A stretch of DNA of 64,000 bases, from the NCBI GenBank assembly GCA_963666835.2, contig CAXXGO010000006.1:832001-896000 (forward strand). The letters run 5' to 3'. The number at the start of each line of letters is the position of its first letter. Position 1 is the stretch's first letter. The notes under the pieces are model-generated. The model ran no database searches. It was not told the DNA's origin and saw only the letters and a list, made by a program, of their open reading frames with translations. Of this stretch, positions 41,346 to 61,286 are shown one piece after another. Source of the DNA: Phycisphaerae bacterium. Its GTDB lineage: Bacteria > Planctomycetota > Phycisphaerae > UBA1845. Position numbers and translations under genes: made by a program.

Positions 41346-42818
41346 CTAGAGCAGCGACAGAATCTGGGTGGCTTGCTGGTTTACCACTCCGAGCAGGGCA
41401 ACGCCCGCCTGCATGAGCACTTGCTGTTGATTCAGAGTCGCCGTCGCGATGGCGTAGTCCGTATCGCCGATCACCGAAGACGCTTCGGTCAAACCGGTCT
41501 GGCTGGCCTGCAACGCGTTGATTGCGCTACCGACCTGGAACTTCTGGAAGCCCCCGACGCGTCCTTGAATGGAGGCGACGTCGGAGATGGCCGCCCGAAT
41601 CGAGTCCAGCGCTCCGGCCACGTCGGTCCGCAAGTCGACGGAACCACCGGACTTGAGCTCTGACAGCCGCGAGACGGCGCCGCCTCCGCCGAGGTTATAT
41701 GTGGCGAGCGAGTCTATCCCGATCGTAGCCCGGGTGGTCGATTTGGTTCCGAGCTGGAAGGTGGCGCCCCCTGTGGCCCGGACCGTGAACGTCGAGGAGG
41801 TGTTGGCCCCCGTGTTGCCCTTGCCGAAGTCCTCGTCAAGGGTGAACGACATACTCAGCCCGTTGGCGCTGTAGGAAACGTCAAGGCCATCGGTTCCCGT
41901 GGTCTGCCCGTTGATGGTGATGACGGCGTCGGTGCCCACGGTTTTGGTGACGTCGGTGAAGTCGTTGGCGGTGCTGCTGTCGCTGGTCGCGGTGCCCCAC
42001 GAGCTATTGACCGTACCGCCGGAGATCAGCTCGAGGCTCACGAAGGCGTCGGCTCCGTACGCGGTGGAACTCAAGGTGATACCGGTGGCAGCGACCATCG
42101 CGGACACGCCGGTCTGGTCTTTGGCGGCGTTGATGGTAGCGACTACCTGGGCCTGGGTCTGCCCGCTGACGATTGAGAGGGTCGCTGCTCCGTCGGCGCC
42201 GGCGACTACGATCTCGGTCGTGCCGGTAGTCTTGGTCGTAGCGGCCGGAGTCATCAACGCGGCGGTGGCCTGAGCGGTCGCGGCGGAGGTGACCCGCGAT
42301 ACTGAGAGGGTGGTATTCGACGTGCTCTGGCTGCGGGAATAGACCCTCAGCGACTCGACGTAGTCGGAGTCGACGTTAGCCACGGCGATTCCGAAGGTTC
42401 CGTCGAGGAGCTTCTTGCCGTTGAAGTTGGTCTGGTTGACGATGCGGTCTATCGCCGAGAGGGCGTCATCAACCTGCGATTGGTTGGCGGAGATCTCCGA
42501 GGCGGTGAGGTTGGCATCACTCGCCGAGGCCTGGACCAGCGTCTGGATCTCGCCGAGCAGGTTCGATACTTCGGTGATCGCCTGGTCGGCGACCGTGAGC
42601 ATCGAATCCGTTCGCTGGTTGTTGACCAGTGACGTTTGCACCGCCCGCAGCTCGGCGTTGATCCCCTGCAGGGCGATCAGCCCGGCCGGGTCATCCTTGC
42701 CGGCGTTGATCCGCTTACCGGTCGTAAGCTGCGACATCGTCGTGGACTGGGCGGCCGCCTGCTGACTGAGGATGTTCAGCAGTGTCGTTGTGTTCGAATT
42801 CGTAATCGTGAGTGCCAT
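41346..42818 (-). CDS. fliC: Flagellin (copy 1)
   Basis: QLTTGKRINAGKDDPAGL, TNFNGKKLLDG, DTDYA and terminal ILSLL. Confidence 0.93.
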   Translation of the reverse strand: MALTITNSNTTTLLNILSQQAAAQSTTMSQLTTGKRINAGKDDPAGLIALQGINAELRAVQTSLVNNQRTDSMLTVADQAITEVSNLLGEIQTLVQASASDANLTASEISANQSQVDDALSAIDRIVNQTNFNGKKLLDGTFGIAVANVDSDYVESLRVYSRSQSTSNTTLSVSRVTSAATAQATAALMTPAATTKTTGTTEIVVAGADGAATLSIVSGQTQAQVVATINAAKDQTGVSAMVAATGITLSSTAYGADAFVSLELISGGTVNSSWGTATSDSSTANDFTDVTKTVGTDAVITINGQTTGTDGLDVSYSANGLSMSFTLDEDFGKGNTGANTSSTFTVRATGGATFQLGTKSTTRATIGIDSLATYNLGGGGAVSRLSELKSGGSVDLRTDVAGALDSIRAAISDVASIQGRVGGFQKFQVGSAINALQASQTGLTEASSVIGDTDYAIATATLNQQQVLMQAGVALLGVVNQQATQILSLL

Positions 42819-48843: not shown

Positions 48844-50316
48844 ATGGCACTGACGATCACGAACACTCAGACGATGACGCTGCTGAACATCATCAACCGG
48901 CAGACGTCCGCCCAGACCACCACGATGAAGCAGCTTACCACCGGCAAGCGGATCAATGCCGGTAAGGACGATCCCGCCGGGCTGATCGCGCTGCAGGGGC
49001 TTAACGCCGAATTGCGCGCGGTGGAGACGTCCCTGGTCAATAACCAGCGCACCGACTCCATGCTCACCGTAGCCGACCAGGCCATCGCTGAAGTATCCAC
49101 CTTGCTCGGCGAGATCCAGACGCTGGTACAGTCGTCGGCCAGCGACGCGAATCTCACCGCCGCCGAGATCTCCGCCAACCAGTCGCAGGTTGACGACGCT
49201 CTCTCGGCCATCGACCGCATTGTCAATCAGACCAATTTCAACGGCAAGAAACTGATCGACGGCAGCTTCAGCATCGCGGTCGCTAATGTCGATTCGGACT
49301 ACGTCGAGTCGCTTCGGGTCTATTCCCGTAGCCAAAGCACCTCGAACACGACTCTCGCCGTGTCCCGGGTGACCTCCGCGGCTACCGCCCAGGCCACCGC
49401 CGCTTTGATGACCCCGGCCGCTACCACCAAAACCACCGGCACGACGGAAATCGTCGTTGCGGGCGCCGACGGTGCGGCCACCCTCTCGATCGTCAGCGGG
49501 CAGACCCAGGCCCAGGTGGTTGCCACGATCAACGCCGCCAAGGACCAGACCGGCGTATCCGCTATGGTCGCCGCTACCGGGATCACCTTGAGTTCGACCG
49601 CTTACGGGGCCGACGCCTTCGTAAGCCTCGAGCTGATCTCGGGCGGTACGGTCAACAGCTCGTGGGGAACCGCGACCGGCGACAGCAGCACGGCCAACGA
49701 CTTCGCCGACGTCAGTAAGACCATCGGTACGGATGCGGTCATCACTATCAACGGACAGAGCACCGGCACCGACGGCCTCGATGTATCCTACAGCGCCAAC
49801 GGGTTGAGCCTGTCCTTCACGCTCGATGAGGACTTCGGCAAGGGTAACACGGGGGCGAATACATCCTCGACCTTCACCGTGCGGGCTACCGGAGGGGCTA
49901 CCTTCCAACTGGGGACCAGCTCCGCCACCCGAGCGACAATCGGGCTCGATTCGCTGGCGACGTATAACCTCGGCGGCGGAGGGACGATTGCCCGACTGTC
50001 TGAGCTCAAGTCCGGCGGGTCCGTCGATCTGCGGACCGACGTTGCCGGAGCGTTGGATTCGATTCGGGCGGCTATCTCCGACGTCGCGTCCATCCAGGGG
50101 CGAATCGGCGGGTTCCAGAAGTTCCAGGTCGGCAGTGCGATCAACGCCCTGCAGGCCAGCCAGACCGGGTTGACCGAAGCGGCAACCGTGCTAGGCGACA
50201 CTGACTTCGCCGTGGCAACCGCCGAGCTGAACCAGCAGCAAGTGCTGATCCAGGCGGGTATCTCTCTGCTGGGCGTAGCGAATCAGCAGGCGGCCCAGAT
50301 TCTGTCCCTGCTCTAA
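48844..50316 (+). CDS. fliC: Flagellin (copy 2)
   Basis: Same flagellin motifs; about 91% amino-acid identity to copy 1 by manual count. Confidence 0.93.
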   Translation: MALTITNTQTMTLLNIINRQTSAQTTTMKQLTTGKRINAGKDDPAGLIALQGLNAELRAVETSLVNNQRTDSMLTVADQAIAEVSTLLGEIQTLVQSSASDANLTAAEISANQSQVDDALSAIDRIVNQTNFNGKKLIDGSFSIAVANVDSDYVESLRVYSRSQSTSNTTLAVSRVTSAATAQATAALMTPAATTKTTGTTEIVVAGADGAATLSIVSGQTQAQVVATINAAKDQTGVSAMVAATGITLSSTAYGADAFVSLELISGGTVNSSWGTATGDSSTANDFADVSKTIGTDAVITINGQSTGTDGLDVSYSANGLSLSFTLDEDFGKGNTGANTSSTFTVRATGGATFQLGTSSATRATIGLDSLATYNLGGGGTIARLSELKSGGSVDLRTDVAGALDSIRAAISDVASIQGRIGGFQKFQVGSAINALQASQTGLTEAATVLGDTDFAVATAELNQQQVLIQAGISLLGVANQQAAQILSLL

Positions 50317-51826: not shown

Positions 51827-53425
51827 CTATTTGCATACTCCTTTGAAGCACCGGTTCGAGCAGCATTCGTCGTTCGACGAACACGATTCGCCGCGCGAGA
51901 GGCACGACGTGCATCCGGGGATCGGGGTGTACACGCACCCACTCACGGAATCGCACGTGTCCGTTGTGCATTCGTCGCCGTCGTTGCAGGTGATCGGATC
52001 GTTGACACACGTGCCGCCCGAGCAGCTATCGGTAGTGCAGGCGTCCGCGTCGTCGCAGTCCATCGGGGTGTTCACGCACAGGCCCGCGTCACACGTATCG
52101 ATCGTGCAGGAGTCTCCGTCAGCGCACTGCGAATCAAGGCTACACGTGAATGAACAGTCGATGGCACAGTTGACTTCGTCTTCAGTCCCTTCGCAGACGG
52201 CATCACCGCAGCACGAGCCGACCGCCGGCTCAGTGGTGCAGGTGTTGCCGCTCGCGGTGCAGCGCGCATCGCCGCAGCCGACCGGGTTCGTGCCGGCGCC
52301 GTCACCGCAGCAGTACCGGCCGCTGGGCTTGCCGCCCTGGTTCCCATTGCAGTCGGCCGGGCACGACAGGCAATCCTCCCCGTCGCCGATCTCGCACACG
52401 CCGTTACCACAGCTTGCTCCGCTGCCGGCAAAGCAGTCGGTGGGGCAGTTGTTGCAGTCTTCTCCGACTTCGCAGGTCCCGTCGGAGTCACAGTCACCCG
52501 TTCCCATGCAGACCAGTTGCAGGCCGCAATCCATGAGGTCGTCGCAGTCGGTGTAGCCGTCGCAGTCCTCGTCGATACCGTCATCACAGACCGACTCGTG
52601 CAGCGGTGGAGCCCCGCAATCCGTGAAGCAATCGCAGGCAATCTCACCCGGATCGCACACCAGGTCCCCGTCACAGACAACGTCCGCACAAAGCGGATCC
52701 GCCGAGCAATCCTGGTCGGTGCAATCCGGGAAGCCGTCACAGTCGTTGTCCTTGCCGTCGCCGCAGGTGGACTCGCTGACCGGAGGAGCTCCGCAATCGG
52801 CCGGACAGTTGCAGCCGTCTTCGCCGGCAAAGCACGTGCCGTTGCCGCACTGAATCGGTACTCCCGTCAACGTAACGGAATCGAAGAAGTGCGTCCGTTG
52901 CGTCTCCCAGACGATGTCGTAGCCGAACGCGACGTATACCGTGGTGAGAGAACTGACCGACAGGGTCCGCTGCATACTGAATGAATCCCAACCGTCCTCA
53001 GTGATGGCGTCGATGCGCTCTCCGTAGCTGGTCTGCGTAAAATCCGATTCCATGGTGGGCTCGTAGGGGCCGATGAACCCGATCGCGTACCACGACGTCA
53101 GGTCGTTATGGCCATCGGACCACAGGTGATAATTCAGCCCAATCGTCCACGTGCCGGCGGGGAGCTGCAGCTCACGCACCATGTAGACCTGGCCGTCGTC
53201 ATTCCTGCCGTCGGCCGTGAAATCAAGTGATGACAGACCATCCTGGGCCTGCTCCGTGGAGGGCCACACCGACCACGCGATGGGTGGATTGCCGATCCGA
53301 GCGCGCCAGGGCCCGAACCCGTCCTCAAAGGACTCGAAGATCGTGTCTGCGGTCGCTGGGGCCCCCGCCGTCAACAACCCGAACACAAACGCGATCGCGC
53401 AGATTGCTCGCATGCTTCTCAACAT
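51827..53425 (-). CDS. Secreted protein with a long Cys-rich repeat region
   Basis: Signal peptide; CGNGxC, CxDGxDxDCDGxxDC and CxDxDxCTxDxC repeats; C-terminal C-C-CC-C-C unit. Confidence 0.8.
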   Translation of the reverse strand: MLRSMRAICAIAFVFGLLTAGAPATADTIFESFEDGFGPWRARIGNPPIAWSVWPSTEQAQDGLSSLDFTADGRNDDGQVYMVRELQLPAGTWTIGLNYHLWSDGHNDLTSWYAIGFIGPYEPTMESDFTQTSYGERIDAITEDGWDSFSMQRTLSVSSLTTVYVAFGYDIVWETQRTHFFDSVTLTGVPIQCGNGTCFAGEDGCNCPADCGAPPVSESTCGDGKDNDCDGFPDCTDQDCSADPLCADVVCDGDLVCDPGEIACDCFTDCGAPPLHESVCDDGIDEDCDGYTDCDDLMDCGLQLVCMGTGDCDSDGTCEVGEDCNNCPTDCFAGSGASCGNGVCEIGDGEDCLSCPADCNGNQGGKPSGRYCCGDGAGTNPVGCGDARCTASGNTCTTEPAVGSCCGDAVCEGTEDEVNCAIDCSFTCSLDSQCADGDSCTIDTCDAGLCVNTPMDCDDADACTTDSCSGGTCVNDPITCNDGDECTTDTCDSVSGCVYTPIPGCTSCLSRGESCSSNDECCSNRCFKGVCK

Positions 53426-54286: not shown

Positions 54287-54597
54287 TCGCCTCGCAAGAC
54301 CGCGTTTTGGTTCCTATAACCACCAACTGCAAATGCCGTCTGGGAAAGGCGTCTTTGTTGCGCGTGGTACTGCGTCGATGCTACTCTCGCCGGCACTACG
54401 CTCGCACTCAGACTGTGATTGAGGCGATGTGCTGATGACGCCGAAACCCCGGATTTTCTTGAGTTCGGATGCTCCTCCAGCTATTATTGGTATTCATTAA
54501 GAGCAGGTACGCGGGGCGTCTTGGGTCGGTTTTCGCCAATCCGAACGGGGTGTCTCTGCAAATACGTTTTTGATGCAAGCAGCATGGAGTGCTGGTG

Positions 54598-57069
54598 ATG
54601 AATGACTATCCATTCCGGGTCGCCCGCCGGTTTCAGCGGGCCGGTTCGCTCGGAGTTGCCGTGGCCTTCGGTATCGTGACCCTTGGCGGGGTAGGCGCGG
54701 CACACGCGGCCGATCGCATGGTGTTATGCGAGGAATTCACGAACCAATATTGAGCGGCGTGCTCTTACGCGGGTCCCGCGTTAGGCTACCTCGTCGACAT
54801 CTACCCTGAGTCGTTCGCGTTCGTACAGTATCACATGTTCGACGACTACGATGACCCGTGGAGCGATGGTCGGTGGTCGTATTTCGGCGCCGAGCACACT
54901 CCGACGACCATCTTCGACGGGGTTGATTACGTCGAGGGCGGAATCAGCGATACTAACCAGCAGTATCACATCTTCCGAACCAACCACTTTCTCCCGCAGC
55001 GCGCGGTGCCGACGGATGTGACGCTCGAGCTGGCCGGTGAGTTCGTTACCGGGCAGACTTACCAGATCACGGCCACCGTGGGCATCGAGGCGGGGGGAAC
55101 GGGCAAGACCGTCCGGGTCTACATGGTGCAAGTTCTGGACCACTGGCCGGCGTCGCCGAGCTACTCGCGCAACACGTTCAAGCAAGCGGGCGACGTCAAA
55201 GAGATCACCCTCGCTCCCGGCGAGACCGATGCTGCGGTGGAGATGTTTACGTTCGACGCGGATAGCTGGGCGAATCAGGAGGAGATCCGGATCATCGCGT
55301 GGGCCCAGGCCGCGGAGGATGCCGGTCCGGTCGAAATGTACCAAGCCGCGGTTCTGAACTGGCCGCTGGTCTCCGCCCCCGGCGACGCCGACGGTGATGG
55401 CATTCTGGACGGGGCGGACAACTGCCCGCAGCACTACAACCCGACCCAGGACAACGGCGACACCGACGATTTCGGCGACGTGTGCGACAACTGCGATACG
55501 ACGGACAATGCGGACCAGGACGATGGTGACGACGACAGCGTCGGCGATGCCTGTGACAACTGTCCGGCACTACATCATCTCGATCAGGGCGATAACGACG
55601 GCGACGGGGTCGGTAATCCGTGCGACTGGTGCCCCGACGTTTCCGCTCCCGGCGGGGTGGACGAAGACGGGCGTTCCCTGGGAACGATCGACCTCGATTG
55701 CGACGTGGACGGCGACGACCTGGCCCTGTTCAACGGGTGTTTCACCGGTCCGGATATCACGGAACCGCCTCCGGGATGTGATCCGGCCGATTTCGCCCGG
55801 GCGGATCTCGACGGAGACATTGACGTCGACCTGGGCGACCGGGCGATCTTCGATCAGAACTACACCGGCCCGCTGGTCGGGCCGGCGTTGTACACCGGGT
55901 CCACCGCCTGTTCTACTTGCCACTCGACGAATCACACGGAATGGGCCGAGACCATCCACGCCACCGCGTTCGATACACTGGTAGCGAGCGGAGACGGAGA
56001 CAACCCCTTGTGCTTCCCGTGCCACACGGTGGGGTACGCGGAGGCGAGCGGTTTCGTCGACTTGGCCACCACACCGCAACTTGCGGACGTTCAATGTGAA
56101 AACTGCCATGGAGCCGGCAGCAACCACATCGCGTCTCCCGGCAGCGCGTCGATGACGATTGACCTGGCCTCGAACCTCTGCGGAGCGTGCCACCAGTCAT
56201 GCCACGGGTTGTGCGGGGACGATCACCATCCCCAGTTCGAACAATGGTCGGAGTCCAAGCACTCCACGGCGCTGAGCGACATTCAGTGGGAGCCCGGCAC
56301 GGTTGCAGAGTGCCTCGAATGTCACTCCACGGACTACCGCATGGCCCCCGCAGGGGATAAGCCCGGCCTGTTCGAAGTAGTGTTCGATCTAGAGTGCGTG
56401 GCCTGCCACGACGCTCACGGAGGGCCCAACGTCGGCCAGCTTCGCCTGCCGCCGCGGCAGTTGTGTGCCGAGTGCCACACCACCGGCGTGGTGGTGCCCG
56501 GCGAAGAGCCCGAGCAACCGCAACTCGAAGCCCTGCACGGGGAAGGCGGCTTCAAGCTGGACGGCACCTCGTTGAAAGGGCCTTATACCGAGCACTGGTG
56601 GGGAATCCCGACGGAATGCGCCGCCTGCCATGTGTTCGCCGAGCCCTACGGCGGGCCGGATCAGCCGGTCAACAGCGGGCACACCTTCGAAGCGAACCGG
56701 CGGGCTTGCGGCCCGTGCCACACGGAAGAATCCGCCAACGCCCTGCTGGGCATGTTGCAGGGAGAGATCTCGGCACGCCTGGCGGGCATCGCCCATTACT
56801 TCGATCCTGGTGATCCGCTGTATGTTGACCCGGCGACCCTGACCCCGGAGCAGTTGGCCCGGTACAACGTTGCCAAGTTCAACTACGAGTTCGTGATCGC
56901 GGACAGGTCCCACGGCGCGCACAATCCCGGCTACGCCCGGGCGTTGCTGGCCCAGACTGAGTTCTTTTTCGGGATCACACCCTGGTTGCTTCAACCGGGA
57001 GGAGACGATATTCCCGCGCCGGCCGACGGTGTTCTGGAGATTGCAGAAGGAGCGGAGGTGGGCCGATGA
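54598..57069 (+). CDS. Putative selenoprotein: UxxC thioredoxin-like (Omp28-type) domain, TSP3-type repeats, dockerin-like module and nonaheme cytochrome c
   Basis: GGAG then ATG 54598, signal peptide ending AHA, then RMVLCEEFTNQY-TGA(54751)-AAC, in frame with track ORF 54835..57069. Nine CxxCH motifs. Confidence 0.85.
54766..54783 (+). promoter_or_regulatory. Candidate bacterial SECIS hairpin
   Basis: ACGCGG-GTC-CCGCGT stem-loop; apical G about 20 nt after the in-frame UGA. Confidence 0.65.
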
Positions 57070-58058
57070 GGATCACTCGACGTGAGTTCCTGAAAGCGGC
57101 TGCGGCCATGGTCGCGGCGGGGAAGATGGCTCCCGTAGCATTCGCGAACCTGCAGGAGACTCTGCGGGGCGAAGGCGCGCCACGAGTCATCTGGCTGCAA
57201 GGGGCGGGTTGCGACGGATGTGCGATCTCGCTGTTGAATTCCGTGCATTACACGACGGTCGACGACCTGCTGGTCAACACGATCGATCTGGAGTTCCAAA
57301 ACAACCTCATGGCCGCGGCCGGTGATCTTGCGGTATCGATCGCGCAAGCCGCCGCCGCCGAGCCCGGCTATATCCTAATCGTTGAGGGGGCCGTCCCCAC
57401 CGGAGCGAGCGGCCAGTATTGCCGGCTGTGGTCGGGAATGACGATGCACAGTGCCCTGCTCGCGTACGGCCCGGACGCCGGCAGTATTATCGCGTTGGGG
57501 GCTTGCGCATCGTTCGGGGGGGTCTCGGGTGGGGCGCCGAACCCGACCGACGCCCAAGGTGTGGGCGACATCATCGGAGACGACCCGCGGTTGATTAACA
57601 TCCCAGGTTGTCCGGCCCACCCCGATTGGCTTGTGGGCACTCTGACGTACCTGCTGACCACGGGGCATACTCCGCCGTTGGATGAGTATCACCGGCCTTT
57701 GGAGTATTTCGGCAAGCGGATTCACGACAACTGCTTCAAGCGGCGCGAGTATTGCGGTACCGGGGTTTTTGCCTCCAACCTCAGCGAAGAGGGCTGCATG
57801 GAGTTCCTCGGCTGCAAGGGCAAGAAGACCTACGCTGATTGCCCGATCCGCAAGTGGAACAGCGGTGAAGAGGGCGGCAGCGGTGTGAACTGGTGCATCG
57901 GGGCGCGGAGTCCGTGTCTTGGTTGCGTGGAGCCCACTTTCCCGGACGGGATGTCTCCGTTCTACGTGTATTCGCCTACCCCGGAGAAACTCGAGGGGGG
58001 CGCCGGCTCCGAAACGCTGCAGACCAAACCGCAATCGATTGACAAGAAGCCGAGTTGA
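57066..58058 (+). CDS. [NiFe]-hydrogenase small subunit, Tat-exported (group 1a-like)
   Basis: TRREFLK Tat motif; CDGC, GACASFGG, PGCP, HDNC and WC...PCLGC. ATGA overlap with the cytochrome gene. Confidence 0.95.
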   Translation: MRITRREFLKAAAAMVAAGKMAPVAFANLQETLRGEGAPRVIWLQGAGCDGCAISLLNSVHYTTVDDLLVNTIDLEFQNNLMAAAGDLAVSIAQAAAAEPGYILIVEGAVPTGASGQYCRLWSGMTMHSALLAYGPDAGSIIALGACASFGGVSGGAPNPTDAQGVGDIIGDDPRLINIPGCPAHPDWLVGTLTYLLTTGHTPPLDEYHRPLEYFGKRIHDNCFKRREYCGTGVFASNLSEEGCMEFLGCKGKKTYADCPIRKWNSGEEGGSGVNWCIGARSPCLGCVEPTFPDGMSPFYVYSPTPEKLEGGAGSETLQTKPQSIDKKPS

Positions 58059-58106: not shown

Positions 58107-59555
58107 ATGGCGACGACGATCACAATTGACCCGGTAACCCGCATTGAGGGCCACCTCGAGATCGAAGTGACCGTCGATCTGGTCGGCGGTGACCAGCAGG
58201 TCATCTCCGCCAAGAGCGTGGGGAAGATGTTCCGCGGGTTCGAGATGATCCTGGCCGGTCGGGACCCGCGCGATGCCGCGCAATACACCCAACGCATTTG
58301 CGGAGTGTGTCCGGTGTCTCATGCGATGGCCTCGACCAGGACGCTGGACAACGCCTTTGGGGTCACTCCCCCGGACAACGGCCGGATCGTGCGCAACTTG
58401 ATCCTCGGGGCGAACTTCATCCAATCCCACGTGTTACACTTCTACCACCTTTCGGCGGTAGACTTCATTGATACGACGGGACTGCTGGATCTTTCGCCGT
58501 GGGCTCCGCGCTACGTCACTGCGGACATGGCGACCGGGGCTACGGCCGGCACGCTGGTGAACAACTACCTCGCGGCACTTGCTATCCGACGTAAGGCGCA
58601 TCAGATGGGGGCTATTTTCGGAGGCAAGCTCCCGTGTACCGGTTCTTTTGTGGTCGGTGGGGTCACTGAAGTAGTCAGCGCGGAGAAGATCGCCGAGTTT
58701 AGGAGTCTCCTGACGGAAATTCGCAGCTTCATCGATAACGTGTATATAGCGGATGCCACGACGGTGGCAGGTCTGTTCCCGGATTACTACTCGCTTGGTG
58801 TCGGAAACGGCAATCTGCTTGCCTATGGCGCTTTCGACCTTAACTCCGCGGGCACCAGCAGACTCTTCGCAAGCGGGCGGCGTACGGACGGCTCGGCGCA
58901 AGCGATGGACCCGGCCGACATAACCGAACGGGTAACGTATTCGTGGTATACGCCGGCCTGCGACGACCTTAACCCCGCCGCCGGCGCGACGGAGCCGGAC
59001 GCCGCCAAGCCCGGGGCCTATTCCTGGATGAAGGCCCCGCGCTATCTGAATAAGGCGCACGAACTGGGACCGCTGGCGCGGATGTGGATCAACGGGTATT
59101 ACACCAACGGCGTATCCGTGCTCGATCGGATCGTAGCCCGGGCGCAGGAGGCGAAGCTGATTGCCGATACGATGGACGGCTGGCTGGATCAACTGGTTCC
59201 GGGCGATCCGGTTTATCAGTCCAGTTCGATTCCAACTACCGCCAGTGGAGTGGGGCTGACGGAGGCGCCTCGCGGAGCGCTGGGGCATTGGATGGACATC
59301 GATAGCTCGGTGATTTTGCGTTATCAAGTGGTTACGCCGACCAATTGGAATGCCTCGCCGCTGGACCATCTGAATCAACCGGGTCCGATCGAAGCGGCGC
59401 TGGTGGGTACTCCCGTTGCGGATATGAGCCAGCCGATCGAGGTTCTGCGCGTGGTTCACTCCTTCGACCCGTGCCTGGCTTGTGCGGTCCACATGGTCCG
59501 GCCGGACGATCGATCGAAGGGTTCGAGAATAGTGATTCAGCCGGGTATCGCCTGA
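58107..59555 (+). CDS. [NiFe]-hydrogenase large subunit
   Basis: DPVTRIEGH, RICGVC, EAPRGAL and DPCLACAVH (TGC, so Cys) followed by a cleavable tail. Confidence 0.96.
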   Translation: MATTITIDPVTRIEGHLEIEVTVDLVGGDQQVISAKSVGKMFRGFEMILAGRDPRDAAQYTQRICGVCPVSHAMASTRTLDNAFGVTPPDNGRIVRNLILGANFIQSHVLHFYHLSAVDFIDTTGLLDLSPWAPRYVTADMATGATAGTLVNNYLAALAIRRKAHQMGAIFGGKLPCTGSFVVGGVTEVVSAEKIAEFRSLLTEIRSFIDNVYIADATTVAGLFPDYYSLGVGNGNLLAYGAFDLNSAGTSRLFASGRRTDGSAQAMDPADITERVTYSWYTPACDDLNPAAGATEPDAAKPGAYSWMKAPRYLNKAHELGPLARMWINGYYTNGVSVLDRIVARAQEAKLIADTMDGWLDQLVPGDPVYQSSSIPTTASGVGLTEAPRGALGHWMDIDSSVILRYQVVTPTNWNASPLDHLNQPGPIEAALVGTPVADMSQPIEVLRVVHSFDPCLACAVHMVRPDDRSKGSRIVIQPGIA

Positions 59556-59592: not shown

Positions 59593-60138
59593 ATGATCTT
59601 GCCACCACGACAAACCGAACGCGCCCGCGTGGAGAAGTGTCCGGTCCTCATTCTGGGCGTGGGCAACATCCTGATGCGCGACGAGGGCGTGGGCGTGCGG
59701 GTAATAGAGGCGATGGGAGAACGCCCGATCCCGCCCGGCGTCGAGTTGTTCGACGGTGCCACGGCCGGGATCGATCTGCTCGATGCCCTGGCCGATCGGC
59801 GCAAGGTCATCGTGATCGATGCGATGGACGGACATTGCGAGCCGGGCACCGTACTGCGGCTGTGTCCGGAGGATCTGACTCCCAGCCCCGGGCAGAGCGT
59901 CTCGTTGCACGAGGTCGGCTTCCTGGAAACTCTGACAATTGCCGGGCGGCTTGGCGCCGCTCCGGAGGAAGTGGTTATCTACGGCGTCCAACCCCAAGTG
60001 GTGGAGTGCGGATTGGATCTGTCCCCCGAGATCTCGCGGTTGGTCCCGCGGATCATCGAGCTGGTGATGGCGGATGTGGATAGTGGCGTGTGCGGCTCCG
60101 TTCCGCGGCAAGAGCCGGAAAGAGAAAGCTCATTATGA
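59593..60138 (+). CDS. Hydrogenase maturation protease (HyaD/HybD family)
   Basis: LGVGNILMRDEGVG, VIDA and SLHE motifs. Confidence 0.95.
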   Translation: MILPPRQTERARVEKCPVLILGVGNILMRDEGVGVRVIEAMGERPIPPGVELFDGATAGIDLLDALADRRKVIVIDAMDGHCEPGTVLRLCPEDLTPSPGQSVSLHEVGFLETLTIAGRLGAAPEEVVIYGVQPQVVECGLDLSPEISRLVPRIIELVMADVDSGVCGSVPRQEPERESSL

Positions 60139-61286
60139 AGCGTTTGGCACTTTCATCGATAGTCCTTTTGGCAGCGCTGGGTTTCTCCGGAACGGCTTGG
60201 GCGGAGCCCGCGTGGGGCGTCAACTGTTTGAGTTGTCACGGTGGCTGGCAGACCGACACGGTGTTCATCTTGAACGAAGACGGGACGGCCGATCCCGACG
60301 AGAGCGCCACCGGCGCACCGGATCGCGGGAGCCTTCCCGTTTTCATGGCTTCCCCGGGTGACACCAAGACGCTGGAGATGGAGCTGGTCGGGCTGTCCCC
60401 CGAAGATACTTATGCGGTCGAGCTCAAGCGGCTGCGTTTCCTCGGAGTTGTCTCCGGCAAAGAGCTGACGTACACCGGTGATTGTGCGTGGCCTTACTGG
60501 GGCGAGCCCGGAAAATACTTCACAGAACCGCCGATTAGCTATGAATGGGGCTCAGATCCGACAGCATTCAGCTTCGATCTGACCGTGCAACCGGATGCAC
60601 CCTACGACTACTATGACCTGGTTTTCGCGGTAGCGGGCAAATGGGCGGCCGACGGCGGCCTTTTCTATGATGAGCAGCATTTCTATCTGCGCGTGACCGA
60701 GATACCTTCGGCCCCTCTGGCTATCGATGAGCCCAAGAACCGGTACATCTCCTTCAATGCCCAGGCCGTGGGTACGTCAGCCATCCAAGTGGAATTGGTG
60801 GCCAGCGATCCGTTCCCGGGTTCCAGCGGAATGCTCGGCTGGGTGGAGGAGCCGGACGCAAACGGTCTGGCCGGTATTGGGGATACTCCGGTCTTCCGCA
60901 CTTGGGATGAATCGGCCGTTCACATTGGTGACTGCGGAATCGTGCCGGGATCCGAATACCAACTCCGGGCTTCATTCGACGGAGAGACGATGTCCGATCC
61001 GACAACGGTTAACACGGCGGACGTACCGGCTCCGAAGTATTGGGCGGACATGGTCGGCGGGTTCGTCGGCGATGCGTGGTTGGGCCCGAACGGGATCGTC
61101 AACATGAGCGACATCCAGGCGGCCCTGCAGCGTTTCTCCGGGTCCCCGAGTGCCCCGCCGTTGACCTGGGTCGATCTCGACAGCGAAACGCCCAACGGTC
61201 TTATTAATATGACGGATATTCAGCAAGCGGTCGGCGGGTTCAAAGGCATGCCGTACCCGTTCGGCGATCCGGTATCCTGCCCGTAA
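60135..61286 (+). CDS. Secreted monoheme cytochrome c-like protein with C-terminal dockerin-like module
   Basis: ATGA overlap with the protease gene; signal peptide ending AWA; CLSCH; paired PNGIVNMSDI and PNGLINMTDI loops. Confidence 0.75.
   Translation: MKRLALSSIVLLAALGFSGTAWAEPAWGVNCLSCHGGWQTDTVFILNEDGTADPDESATGAPDRGSLPVFMASPGDTKTLEMELVGLSPEDTYAVELKRLRFLGVVSGKELTYTGDCAWPYWGEPGKYFTEPPISYEWGSDPTAFSFDLTVQPDAPYDYYDLVFAVAGKWAADGGLFYDEQHFYLRVTEIPSAPLAIDEPKNRYISFNAQAVGTSAIQVELVASDPFPGSSGMLGWVEEPDANGLAGIGDTPVFRTWDESAVHIGDCGIVPGSEYQLRASFDGETMSDPTTVNTADVPAPKYWADMVGGFVGDAWLGPNGIVNMSDIQAALQRFSGSPSAPPLTWVDLDSETPNGLINMTDIQQAVGGFKGMPYPFGDPVSCP

Follow-up and report, generated by a model that had tools for sequence, protein, structure and literature searches.

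An Omp28-type UxxC module fused to a nonaheme cytochrome c: a predicted selenoprotein encoded beside a [NiFe] hydrogenase in Phycisphaerae

The 64,000-nucleotide stretch analysed here, henceforth the window (Phycisphaerae bacterium (UBA1845) assembly GCA_963666835.2, contig CAXXGO010000006.1, positions 832,001-896,000), carries a gene whose single in-frame TGA is, on comparative sequence evidence, almost certainly read through as selenocysteine (Sec, U). The predicted product joins a UxxC thioredoxin-type module to a nonaheme cytochrome c, and its gene adjoins those of a [NiFe] hydrogenase. The explanation that we favour overall, with a probability of roughly 0.4, is that this fusion protein serves as electron partner of the hydrogenase and would relay electrons through two cysteines of an insert in the cytochrome (C535 and C539) to U52/C55, and from there to an S-S substrate. 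The gene and its parts, all on the + strand, are the following.

54598..57069, +: fusion gene, 823 amino acids with U52, open apart from one in-frame TGA; domain order signal peptide - UxxC thioredoxin+Ig - thrombospondin type-3 (TSP3) repeats - dockerin-like EF-hand pair - OcwA-type nonaheme cytochrome c
54586..54589, +: GGAG ribosome-binding-site-like motif in the sequence, 8 nt 5′ of ATG 54598
54598..54708, +: signal-peptide-like N-terminus, residues 1-37, ending AHA (from sequence; cleavage site inferred)
54712..55365, +: HBP35/DUF1223/Omp28-type module, with a thioredoxin fold at about 39-136 (U52-x-x-C55, invariant cis-Pro-like T101-P102) and an Ig-like domain at 137-256
54751..54753, +: TGA read as selenocysteine 52 (TGA/Cys codon alternation, Sec machinery, second-study contigs)
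54767..54781, +: bacterial selenocysteine insertion sequence (SECIS) hairpin, ACGCGG-GUC-CCGCGU (comparative conservation at synonymous sites)
55366..55635, +: thrombospondin type-3-like Ca-binding repeats, residues ~257-346 (PF02412 below cut-off; many invariant Asp and Cys)
55675..55875, +: dockerin-like paired EF-hand module (motif comparison)
55885..56985, +: OcwA/OmhA-type nonaheme cytochrome c with C-terminal helical bundle (sequence and fold matches)
56197..56229, +: insert S-C535-H536-G-L-C539-G, then His-His 543/544 (alignment to OcwA)

Selenocysteine at codon 52 and its SECIS element

A first-pass annotation of this DNA had extended the frame upstream to ATG 54598, preceded by GGAG and opening a signal-like N-terminus, through one TGA at 54751-54753 (EEFTNQY-U-AAC), for a total of 823 residues. 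All of these elements are found in the sequence. The standard-code open reading frame (ORF) does begin at 54835, as that annotation stated, and the entry in the protein collection is exactly this 744-residue form; the gene ends at a second TGA, 57067-57069. At least eight CxxCH motifs occur in 71 of 85 homologues from the protein collection (the window's own truncated entry counted), and 38 of these 71 multiheme proteins lack the N-terminal motif, as expected when gene calling begins after the TGA.

Codon 52 could be read in 45 fusion loci: the window's own, L050, 41 of 45 homologous loci, L037 and L038. Left out were L144, L160 and L167, whose contigs start after the column, and L169 and L051, in which the N-terminal module is absent. 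The codon is TGA in 23 of the 45 loci and TGC or TGT in the remaining 22. The second cysteine of the U/CxxC motif and a hydrophobic signal-like stretch 5′ of it are kept in all 45, and position 52 is cysteine in each of the 34 full-length rows of the protein alignment (one row being the recoded query). No stop replaces any of the 1,369 Cys codons that lie downstream of codon 52 in 43 complete genes. The genome itself encodes selA, selB, selC (tRNA-SeC(TCA)) and two selD genes, all above cut-off, one selD having an in-frame TGA; two heme-free paralogues of the N-terminal module likewise carry TGA at the equivalent codon. Contigs from a second study (X3/X4, one sample) cross the TGA unchanged, run X1 being possibly the source assembly and hence not counted as independent support. 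The first-pass annotation had proposed read-through and had pointed to the sel genes, the codon in homologues and an assembly error as the matters to settle; together with the conserved flanks and the SECIS conservation described below, these results bear out its proposal on each of them.

Mapping codon 52 on a tree of the loci requires 11 changes, at least five of them Sec/Cys switches forced by strong branches (the tree is from a quick search, and related loci are not independent). With half of the orthologues Cys-type and these repeated switches, selenium is not required. Nor does the Cys state result from loss of the Sec system, since selA is present in 210 of 251 genomes of the order, many of which have the Cys form of the fusion, and TGA paralogues adjoin several Cys-type loci.

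The SECIS hairpin has a GUC loop lying 19 nt past the UGA, a 6-bp stem and a folding energy of -9.7 kcal/mol. It agrees on every count with the bacterial SECIS model (loop of 3-9 nt, stem of 4-16 bp, G in loop position 1 or 2, 16-37 nt from the UGA, minimum free energy ≤ -7.5; PMC13188914). The energy is no better than that of shuffled sequences (z -0.97 to +0.41), and a looser hairpin filter passes 1,071 of 35,493 TGA frames of the genome (3.0%). Folding energy alone being unremarkable, it was not used as evidence, and the support for the SECIS is comparative. As the hairpin overlies the codons A-G-P-A, synonymous sites provide a test: the GGT glycine codon together with four Watson-Crick pairs is present in 20 of 23 TGA genes against 2 of 22 Cys genes; among the paralogues it is present in 11 of 15 with TGA and in none of three with Cys. 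The pair formed by two wobble positions is found as G-C, A-U and C-G, and in four U/C sister pairs (L139/L145, L135/L134, L146/L154, L162/L174) the better hairpin is always in the U member. A G-GU(A/C)-C apex recurs after the TGA of selD (G-GUA-C at 33 nt) and of both paralogues. The G-looped hairpin that had been noted about 20 nt past the TGA is thus present and is kept selectively in TGA genes.

That the TGA is a true stop, through a nonsense mutation or an assembly error, with the cytochrome starting downstream without a signal peptide, is highly improbable. In favour of this view, a single step would turn TGC into TGA and the hairpin energy is no better than that of shuffles; but it leaves unexplained why TGA recurs in 23 of 45 loci at this one column and at none of the other Cys codons, why the SECIS tracks it in the four sister pairs, why the Sec machinery is complete, and why a second study recovered the same codon. 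Reading of TGA as tryptophan, or general read-through, was ruled out: TGA serves as the stop of the fusion gene, hydS and hydL, Cys and TGA alternate in the column, and the genome has tRNA-SeC.

Further selenoprotein candidates were seen in the genome. Two unannotated UxxC selenoproteins, at G000:C6:954496(+) (L008) and G000:C1:1961944(+) (L009), have the same SECIS, one of them with an FGE-sulfatase-like domain, and a probable peroxiredoxin-like selenoprotein (RGHWUPWC, GGUC-loop hairpin; family assigned by eye) lies at G000:C1:1903505(-). UxxC paralogues frequently adjoin the hydrogenase operon in other genomes. The 45 homologous loci bear Phycisphaerae/Planctomycetota labels, except for two labelled Thermoanaerobaculia and one from an unlabelled bacterium. 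The Thermoanaerobaculia loci (L162 and L174) have the whole operon and pair together in the tree, reflecting transfer or mis-binning. A metagenome scan gave at least one full fusion (L050) among the 80 loci listed, which are mostly unfused cytochromes.

Modules of the fusion protein

The predicted structure of residues 39-256 (mean predicted local distance difference test score, pLDDT, 95.9) consists of a thioredoxin and an Ig-like domain. The closest folds are HBP35 (5Y1A; Z 22.5, root-mean-square deviation (rmsd) 2.5, 208 residues aligned) and Atu2684 (2AXO; Z 18.9), which we take to be the protein labelled DUF1223; the row that follows reaches only 12.1. A sequence search of the PDB with the single N-terminal domain returned no match, while profile and fold searches gave HBP35-type matches. 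The NCBIfam model NF045500, "Omp28-related selenoprotein", matches at 100.1 bits (E 1.6e-28) and, in the genome scan, at 86 bits; its cut-off is 200, which makes the module a relative and not a member of that family. The thioredoxin/Omp28-type domain named in the first-pass annotation is borne out by structure, fold match and family relation alike. NF045500 is catalogued as GOS_C, with UxxC (PMC13188914), and GOS_C was first reported without functional evidence (PMC2398784); Sec at the UxxC of an Omp28-type domain is therefore already on record.

The TSP3-type repeats and the domain order given earlier also hold, the former with a Pfam match below cut-off. Only part of the claim of a dockerin-like pair stands: a paired EF-hand-like motif is present, but the Pfam type I dockerin model (Dockerin_1, PF00404) does not match the fusion protein. 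The homologous segments in L189 and L190 reach 20.8-21.3 bits with PF00404 (cut-off 22.9). A similar motif occurs in 65 frames of the genome and so serves as a generic tag on secreted proteins of this lineage; it also terminates the heme-free paralogues, the minimal one consisting of signal, UxxC and dockerin. Cohesin gives one weak match in the genome (E 2e-4).

All nine CxxCH motifs listed in the first-pass annotation are confirmed (CSTCH, CFPCH, CENCH, CGACH, CLECH, CVACH, CAECH, CAACH, CGPCH). Residues 430-796 match OcwA (6I5B, E 7e-24) and OmhA (6QVM, E 2e-11) with the nine motifs in order; the top Foldseek matches are also of this type, a fold comparison gives Z 11.6 (330 aligned, rmsd 4.5), and the cytochrome has their c554-like and NrfA-like modules and three-helix bundle. 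MccA and MccSep are not among the fold matches listed for the cytochrome part, a listing that excludes neither. In OcwA hemes 2 and 5 are open, each beneath a His-His pair (PMC6703420). H543 and H544 align to the heme-2 pair H281/H282 and are kept in 60 and 62 of 62 rows, respectively. The heme-5 pair (OcwA H380/H381), conserved throughout OcwA/OmhA (PMC9250108), is here replaced by E-Q, with Q in 55 of 62 rows.

A seven-residue insert, overlooked in the first-pass annotation as was the hydrogenase operon, separates the heme-4 motif from H543/H544. C535, H536, C539 and H544 are invariant (62 of 62 rows), and the two cysteines are candidate ligands of a heme. The insert is found in all 71 multiheme homologues of the protein collection and in none of 14 unfused cytochromes (the pattern caught 16 frames in 87 loci). 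The exact pattern, a search of limited sensitivity, is absent from 300 genomes of the phylum outside the order.

The heme-2 His-His pair is intact in 39 of 40 hydrogenase-linked copies and is Tyr-His in unlinked ones. The latter are L160, L161, L163, L169 and L189-L191; those displayed in full also lack H666, and three of the unlinked copies adjoin ORFs that resemble transposases by eye.

The hydrogenase operon

Downstream of the fusion gene are four further genes on the same strand.

57066..58058, +: [NiFe] hydrogenase small subunit, with a twin-arginine signal and no C-terminal membrane anchor; ATGA overlap with the fusion stop
58107..59555, +: [NiFe] hydrogenase large subunit (NF033181 603 bits, cut-off 600; best PDB matches [NiFeSe]; DPCLAC)
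59593..60138, +: HyaD/HybD-type hydrogenase maturation protease (profile matches)
60135..61286, +: exported monoheme protein, CLSCH directly after the signal peptide, variable dockerin-like or sorting tail

The hydrogenase is group-1a-like and closest to periplasmic [NiFeSe] enzymes, as placed by NCBIfam and PDB closeness. The [NiFeSe] model NF045518 scores 526 bits against a cut-off of 780, and the DPCLAC motif is of the Cys type, as it is in every operon locus where it is printed. At the medial-cluster position the small subunit (57066-58058, +) has N-W-C, presumably the [4Fe-4S] signature of [NiFeSe]-type small subunits. The operon encodes neither a membrane anchor nor a cytochrome b. Elsewhere in the genome are hypD and a gene for cytochrome c assembly. 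The monoheme protein matches no Pfam or NCBIfam family. It has PAWGxxCxxCH at its mature N-terminus, follows the hydrogenase more widely than the fusion does, and is present as two flanking copies in L175. Its tails, which are dockerin-like, hydrophobic-plus-basic or end in DGFEG, suggest tethering. Promoter and terminator scans at the operon performed no better than chance, and there is no RNA run among the sequencing runs listed as containing the sequence.

The small subunit lies directly downstream in 42 of the 48 loci with both modules, and all four genes are found in 35. Three of the other six loci end at a contig edge, and the unlinked Tyr-His copies L160, L161 and L163 probably form one clade. 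A full-length fusion occurs in 36 of 251 genomes of the order, and 35 of the 36 contain this hydrogenase clade as well; in the remaining one, G054, the sequence at that place is masked. Thirteen loci of the hydrogenase clade have no fusion: six of them keep the monoheme gene, and three of these six add an unrelated decaheme cytochrome bearing the same TSP3 and dockerin tags. These decahemes (L177:6861-9206(-), L180:3159-5318(-), L183:3418-5643(-)) are of the Cytochrome_cB type, flank this hydrogenase clade in a sister family and have no UxxC module. This linkage, the near-constant co-occurrence, the ATGA overlaps, the convergence of an unrelated tagged cytochrome on the same hydrogenase, and the loss of His-His in unlinked copies together argue that the fusion protein is very probably the electron partner of the co-encoded hydrogenase. 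The occurrence of two kinds of tagged multiheme partner, and of loci without either, indicates at the same time that the hydrogenase clade needs neither this fusion nor its UxxC module.

Elsewhere in the window are two flagellin genes of 490 residues each on opposite strands (41346-42818, -, and 48844-50316, +; about 6 kb between them) and, upstream of the operon on the other strand, a very Cys-rich exported repeat protein (51827-53425, -; Dicty_CTDC match). The genome further holds two HybA/HmcB + HybB/HmcC + 13-heme modules, possible links to the quinone pool (L204:4302-7767(+), L205:6714-10150(-)). Also seen were genes that match hydrazine synthase alpha and beta-gamma below cut-off, the beta-gamma one having 10 CxxCH (L202:3613-10105(-)); a tetrathionate-reductase-family octaheme above cut-off (L197:5054-6934(+)); and a pentaheme that resembles ExtKL/MccSep only weakly (E 1.5e-10, well short of the cut-off; L198:6267-7964(+)).

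Possible functions and relation to known systems

The combination of a hydrogenase operon, a UxxC site and a nine-heme wire suggests that the fusion may use H2 for sulfur-bond chemistry outside the cytoplasm. In the scheme that we favour, H2 would be oxidised there by the hydrogenase and the electrons would enter the nine-heme chain, perhaps via the monoheme protein. Acting either as a disulfide close to a heme or as a heme ligand, the cysteines of the insert would convert one-electron heme to two-electron thiol chemistry and return the tethered UxxC site to its reduced state; that site could then cleave S-S or S-Se bonds of an outside substrate such as polysulfide/S0 or protein disulfides. 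The net result would be an H2-driven disulfide/polysulfide reductase, MccSep-like in action and made from unrelated parts. Like the first-pass annotation, which spoke of a heme chain wired to a selenyl-sulfide, we infer such a heme-to-UxxC relay, though at somewhat less than even odds. It is favoured by an insert that is invariant, stands beside the sole remaining open-heme motif and is confined to the fusion clade, and by the proposal that in MccSep a Sec-S-Cys intermediate is reduced with heme electrons, at a heme with His/Cys ligation (PMC13510729). More tentatively still, the single chain might combine a thioredoxin reductase based on hemes with a seleno-thioredoxin of its own. It would then be an H2:polysulfide or H2:protein-disulfide oxidoreductase, in a tethered hydrogenase-cytochrome assembly that has no flavin, Fe-S or molybdenum disulfide reductase.

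Several observations weigh against this scheme. The insert persists in four dockerin-cytochrome proteins in which no UxxC module was seen (L169, L189-191), its gain is a single evolutionary event, its region has pLDDT below 50 in the predicted structure, and about 170 residues of TSP3 and dockerin lie between the two redox modules. The UxxC module is a promiscuous one: in 149 of the best 150 clusters (50% identity) it comes without a multiheme part, and it is elsewhere fused to Ig, FN3, DUF7901 and FGE-sulfatase domains. Of the 49 genomes of the order that have this hydrogenase clade, 11 are without the fusion, 7 of the 13 fusion-less loci show no cytochrome in the stretch fetched, and there is no sulfur-respiration gene within the operon.

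Some of these points would be accommodated if the cytochrome were a hydrogenase relay or an OcwA-like terminal reductase and the UxxC site an accessory oxidoreductase, re-reduced elsewhere, that maintains or protects the complex. Such a cytochrome could deliver electrons to Fe(III) oxides, shuttles, N-oxides at the open heme 2, or HmcA/HybA/HybB-like quinone modules, two of which the genome does hold. We consider this arrangement somewhat less likely than the relay, as it leaves the invariant insert cysteines and their restriction to the fusion clade without a role, and as the heme-5 His-His that OcwA/OmhA conserve is lost here (PMC9250108). The halves might also be independent, the UxxC part being a passenger derived from a stand-alone UxxC-TSP3-dockerin gene that fused to a neighbouring cytochrome gene and now shares with it one signal peptide and a tether. 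The signal-UxxC-dockerin paralogue, the TSP3-like columns within the NF045500 model itself, a heme-free UxxC-TSP3 gene immediately preceding the fusion in L163 and the existence of dockerin-cytochrome proteins with other N-termini all suit such an origin. Yet the fusion is intact in at least 36 genomes of several families, its modules are similarly conserved (57-65% identity to the query), and no split form stands beside the hydrogenase in 48 loci, so that mere carriage seems unlikely.

Lastly, C535-x3-C539 with H536, H543 and H544 might form a metal site at heme 2, the cytochrome being an MccA-like sulfite or oxyanion reductase whose cysteines are kept reduced by UxxC for loading. Copper would be the obvious metal, given the CX3C spacing, which we take to be a copper motif as in Sco proteins. 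Hemes 1-4 and 6-9 of OcwA can be superposed on MccA, heme 2 being the active site (PMC6703420), MccA conserves two catalytic-site cysteines (PMC9250108), and the lost heme-5 pocket fits the MccA scheme. On the other hand, the MccA cysteines (C399 and C495) are about 100 residues apart and not three (PMC9250108), MccA gave no sequence match in the PDB search, and the operon has no copper-delivery gene. We regard a metal site of this kind as distinctly unlikely. MccA has a CX15CH heme motif; all nine motifs of the fusion are CxxCH. The hydrogenase-coupled relay to an S-S substrate remains our preferred reading.

As the first-pass annotation supposed, the architecture seems uncharacterised: no description of it or of the operon was found in the literature searched, outside which lie subscription papers and supplements, and supplementary selenoprotein datasets could hold members. 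The strings "omp" and "planctomyce" occur nowhere in the available text of one selenoprotein catalogue (PMC13188914). Its parts are of known kinds; what appears undescribed is the fusion, the insert and the operon. If so, the protein joins a short list of multiheme selenoproteins, and its family illustrates how gene calling after a TGA hides selenoproteins in databases. It also provides a likely electron partner for a hydrogenase clade that is common within one order of uncultured Phycisphaerae. An OcwA-type cytochrome, a type characterised in Gram-positive bacteria as a terminal reductase, here stands next to an enzyme of H2 uptake. Should the heme-to-UxxC relay be true, it would be a new coupling of one-electron heme wires to two-electron thiol chemistry, and the natural Cys orthologues make it testable without Sec expression.

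Among known systems, the fusion is a relative of NF045500, OcwA-like without the heme-5 feature, and not MccSep. With GOS_C (PMC2398784) it has in common a thioredoxin-like fold, UxxC in the same place, Sec/Cys pairs, an in-frame SECIS and TSP3-like repeats behind; it differs in scoring half the cut-off, in carrying a nonaheme cytochrome and in its hydrogenase operon. HBP35 of Porphyromonas gingivalis (5Y1A), which is located at the cell surface and active as a thioredoxin (PMC2907840), Atu2684/DUF1223 (2AXO) and Omp28 (2R2C) have the same two-domain thioredoxin+Ig fold at 13-16% identity, without Sec, covalent hemes or a hydrogenase link. OcwA (Thermincola potens, 6I5B) and OmhA (Carboxydothermus, 6QVM) share the order of the nine CxxCH, the heme-2 His-His and the C-terminal helix bundle. 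Six distal histidines align with those of OcwA, and a histidine falls near its heme-9 Met position (the alignment there is approximate). Unlike OcwA and OmhA, the fusion has lost the heme-5 His-His, has the C-H-G-L-C insert and the N-terminal UxxC/TSP3/dockerin part, and adjoins an uptake hydrogenase in a Planctomycete host. The UshA-like (seleno)protein family NF041198 is also a selenoprotein with a C-terminal c554-like heme module, and matches residues 430-535 at 110 bits (cut-off 275). The match covers hemes 1-4 only, and that family has another N-terminal domain and a CxU motif.

The closest solved large subunits are those of the periplasmic [NiFeSe] hydrogenases (group 1a) of Desulfovibrio and Desulfomicrobium, likewise Tat-exported (twin-arginine translocation), unanchored and two-subunit. 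These presumably need a soluble partner, cytochrome c3. Here the large subunit is Cys-type, selenium is in the partner cytochrome, and the partner is co-encoded and OcwA-like. MccSep/ExtKL of Geobacter (NF040886; PMC13510729) is likewise an exported multiheme selenoprotein with Sec/Cys variants, and serves as a model of heme-driven S-S cleavage by means of Sec and Cys. NF040886 does not match the fusion protein at E 0.05, and the two differ in build: MccSep/ExtKL is a pentaheme with Sec inside the cytochrome fold, whereas the fusion has nine hemes and Sec in a separate thioredoxin module with a resolving Cys.

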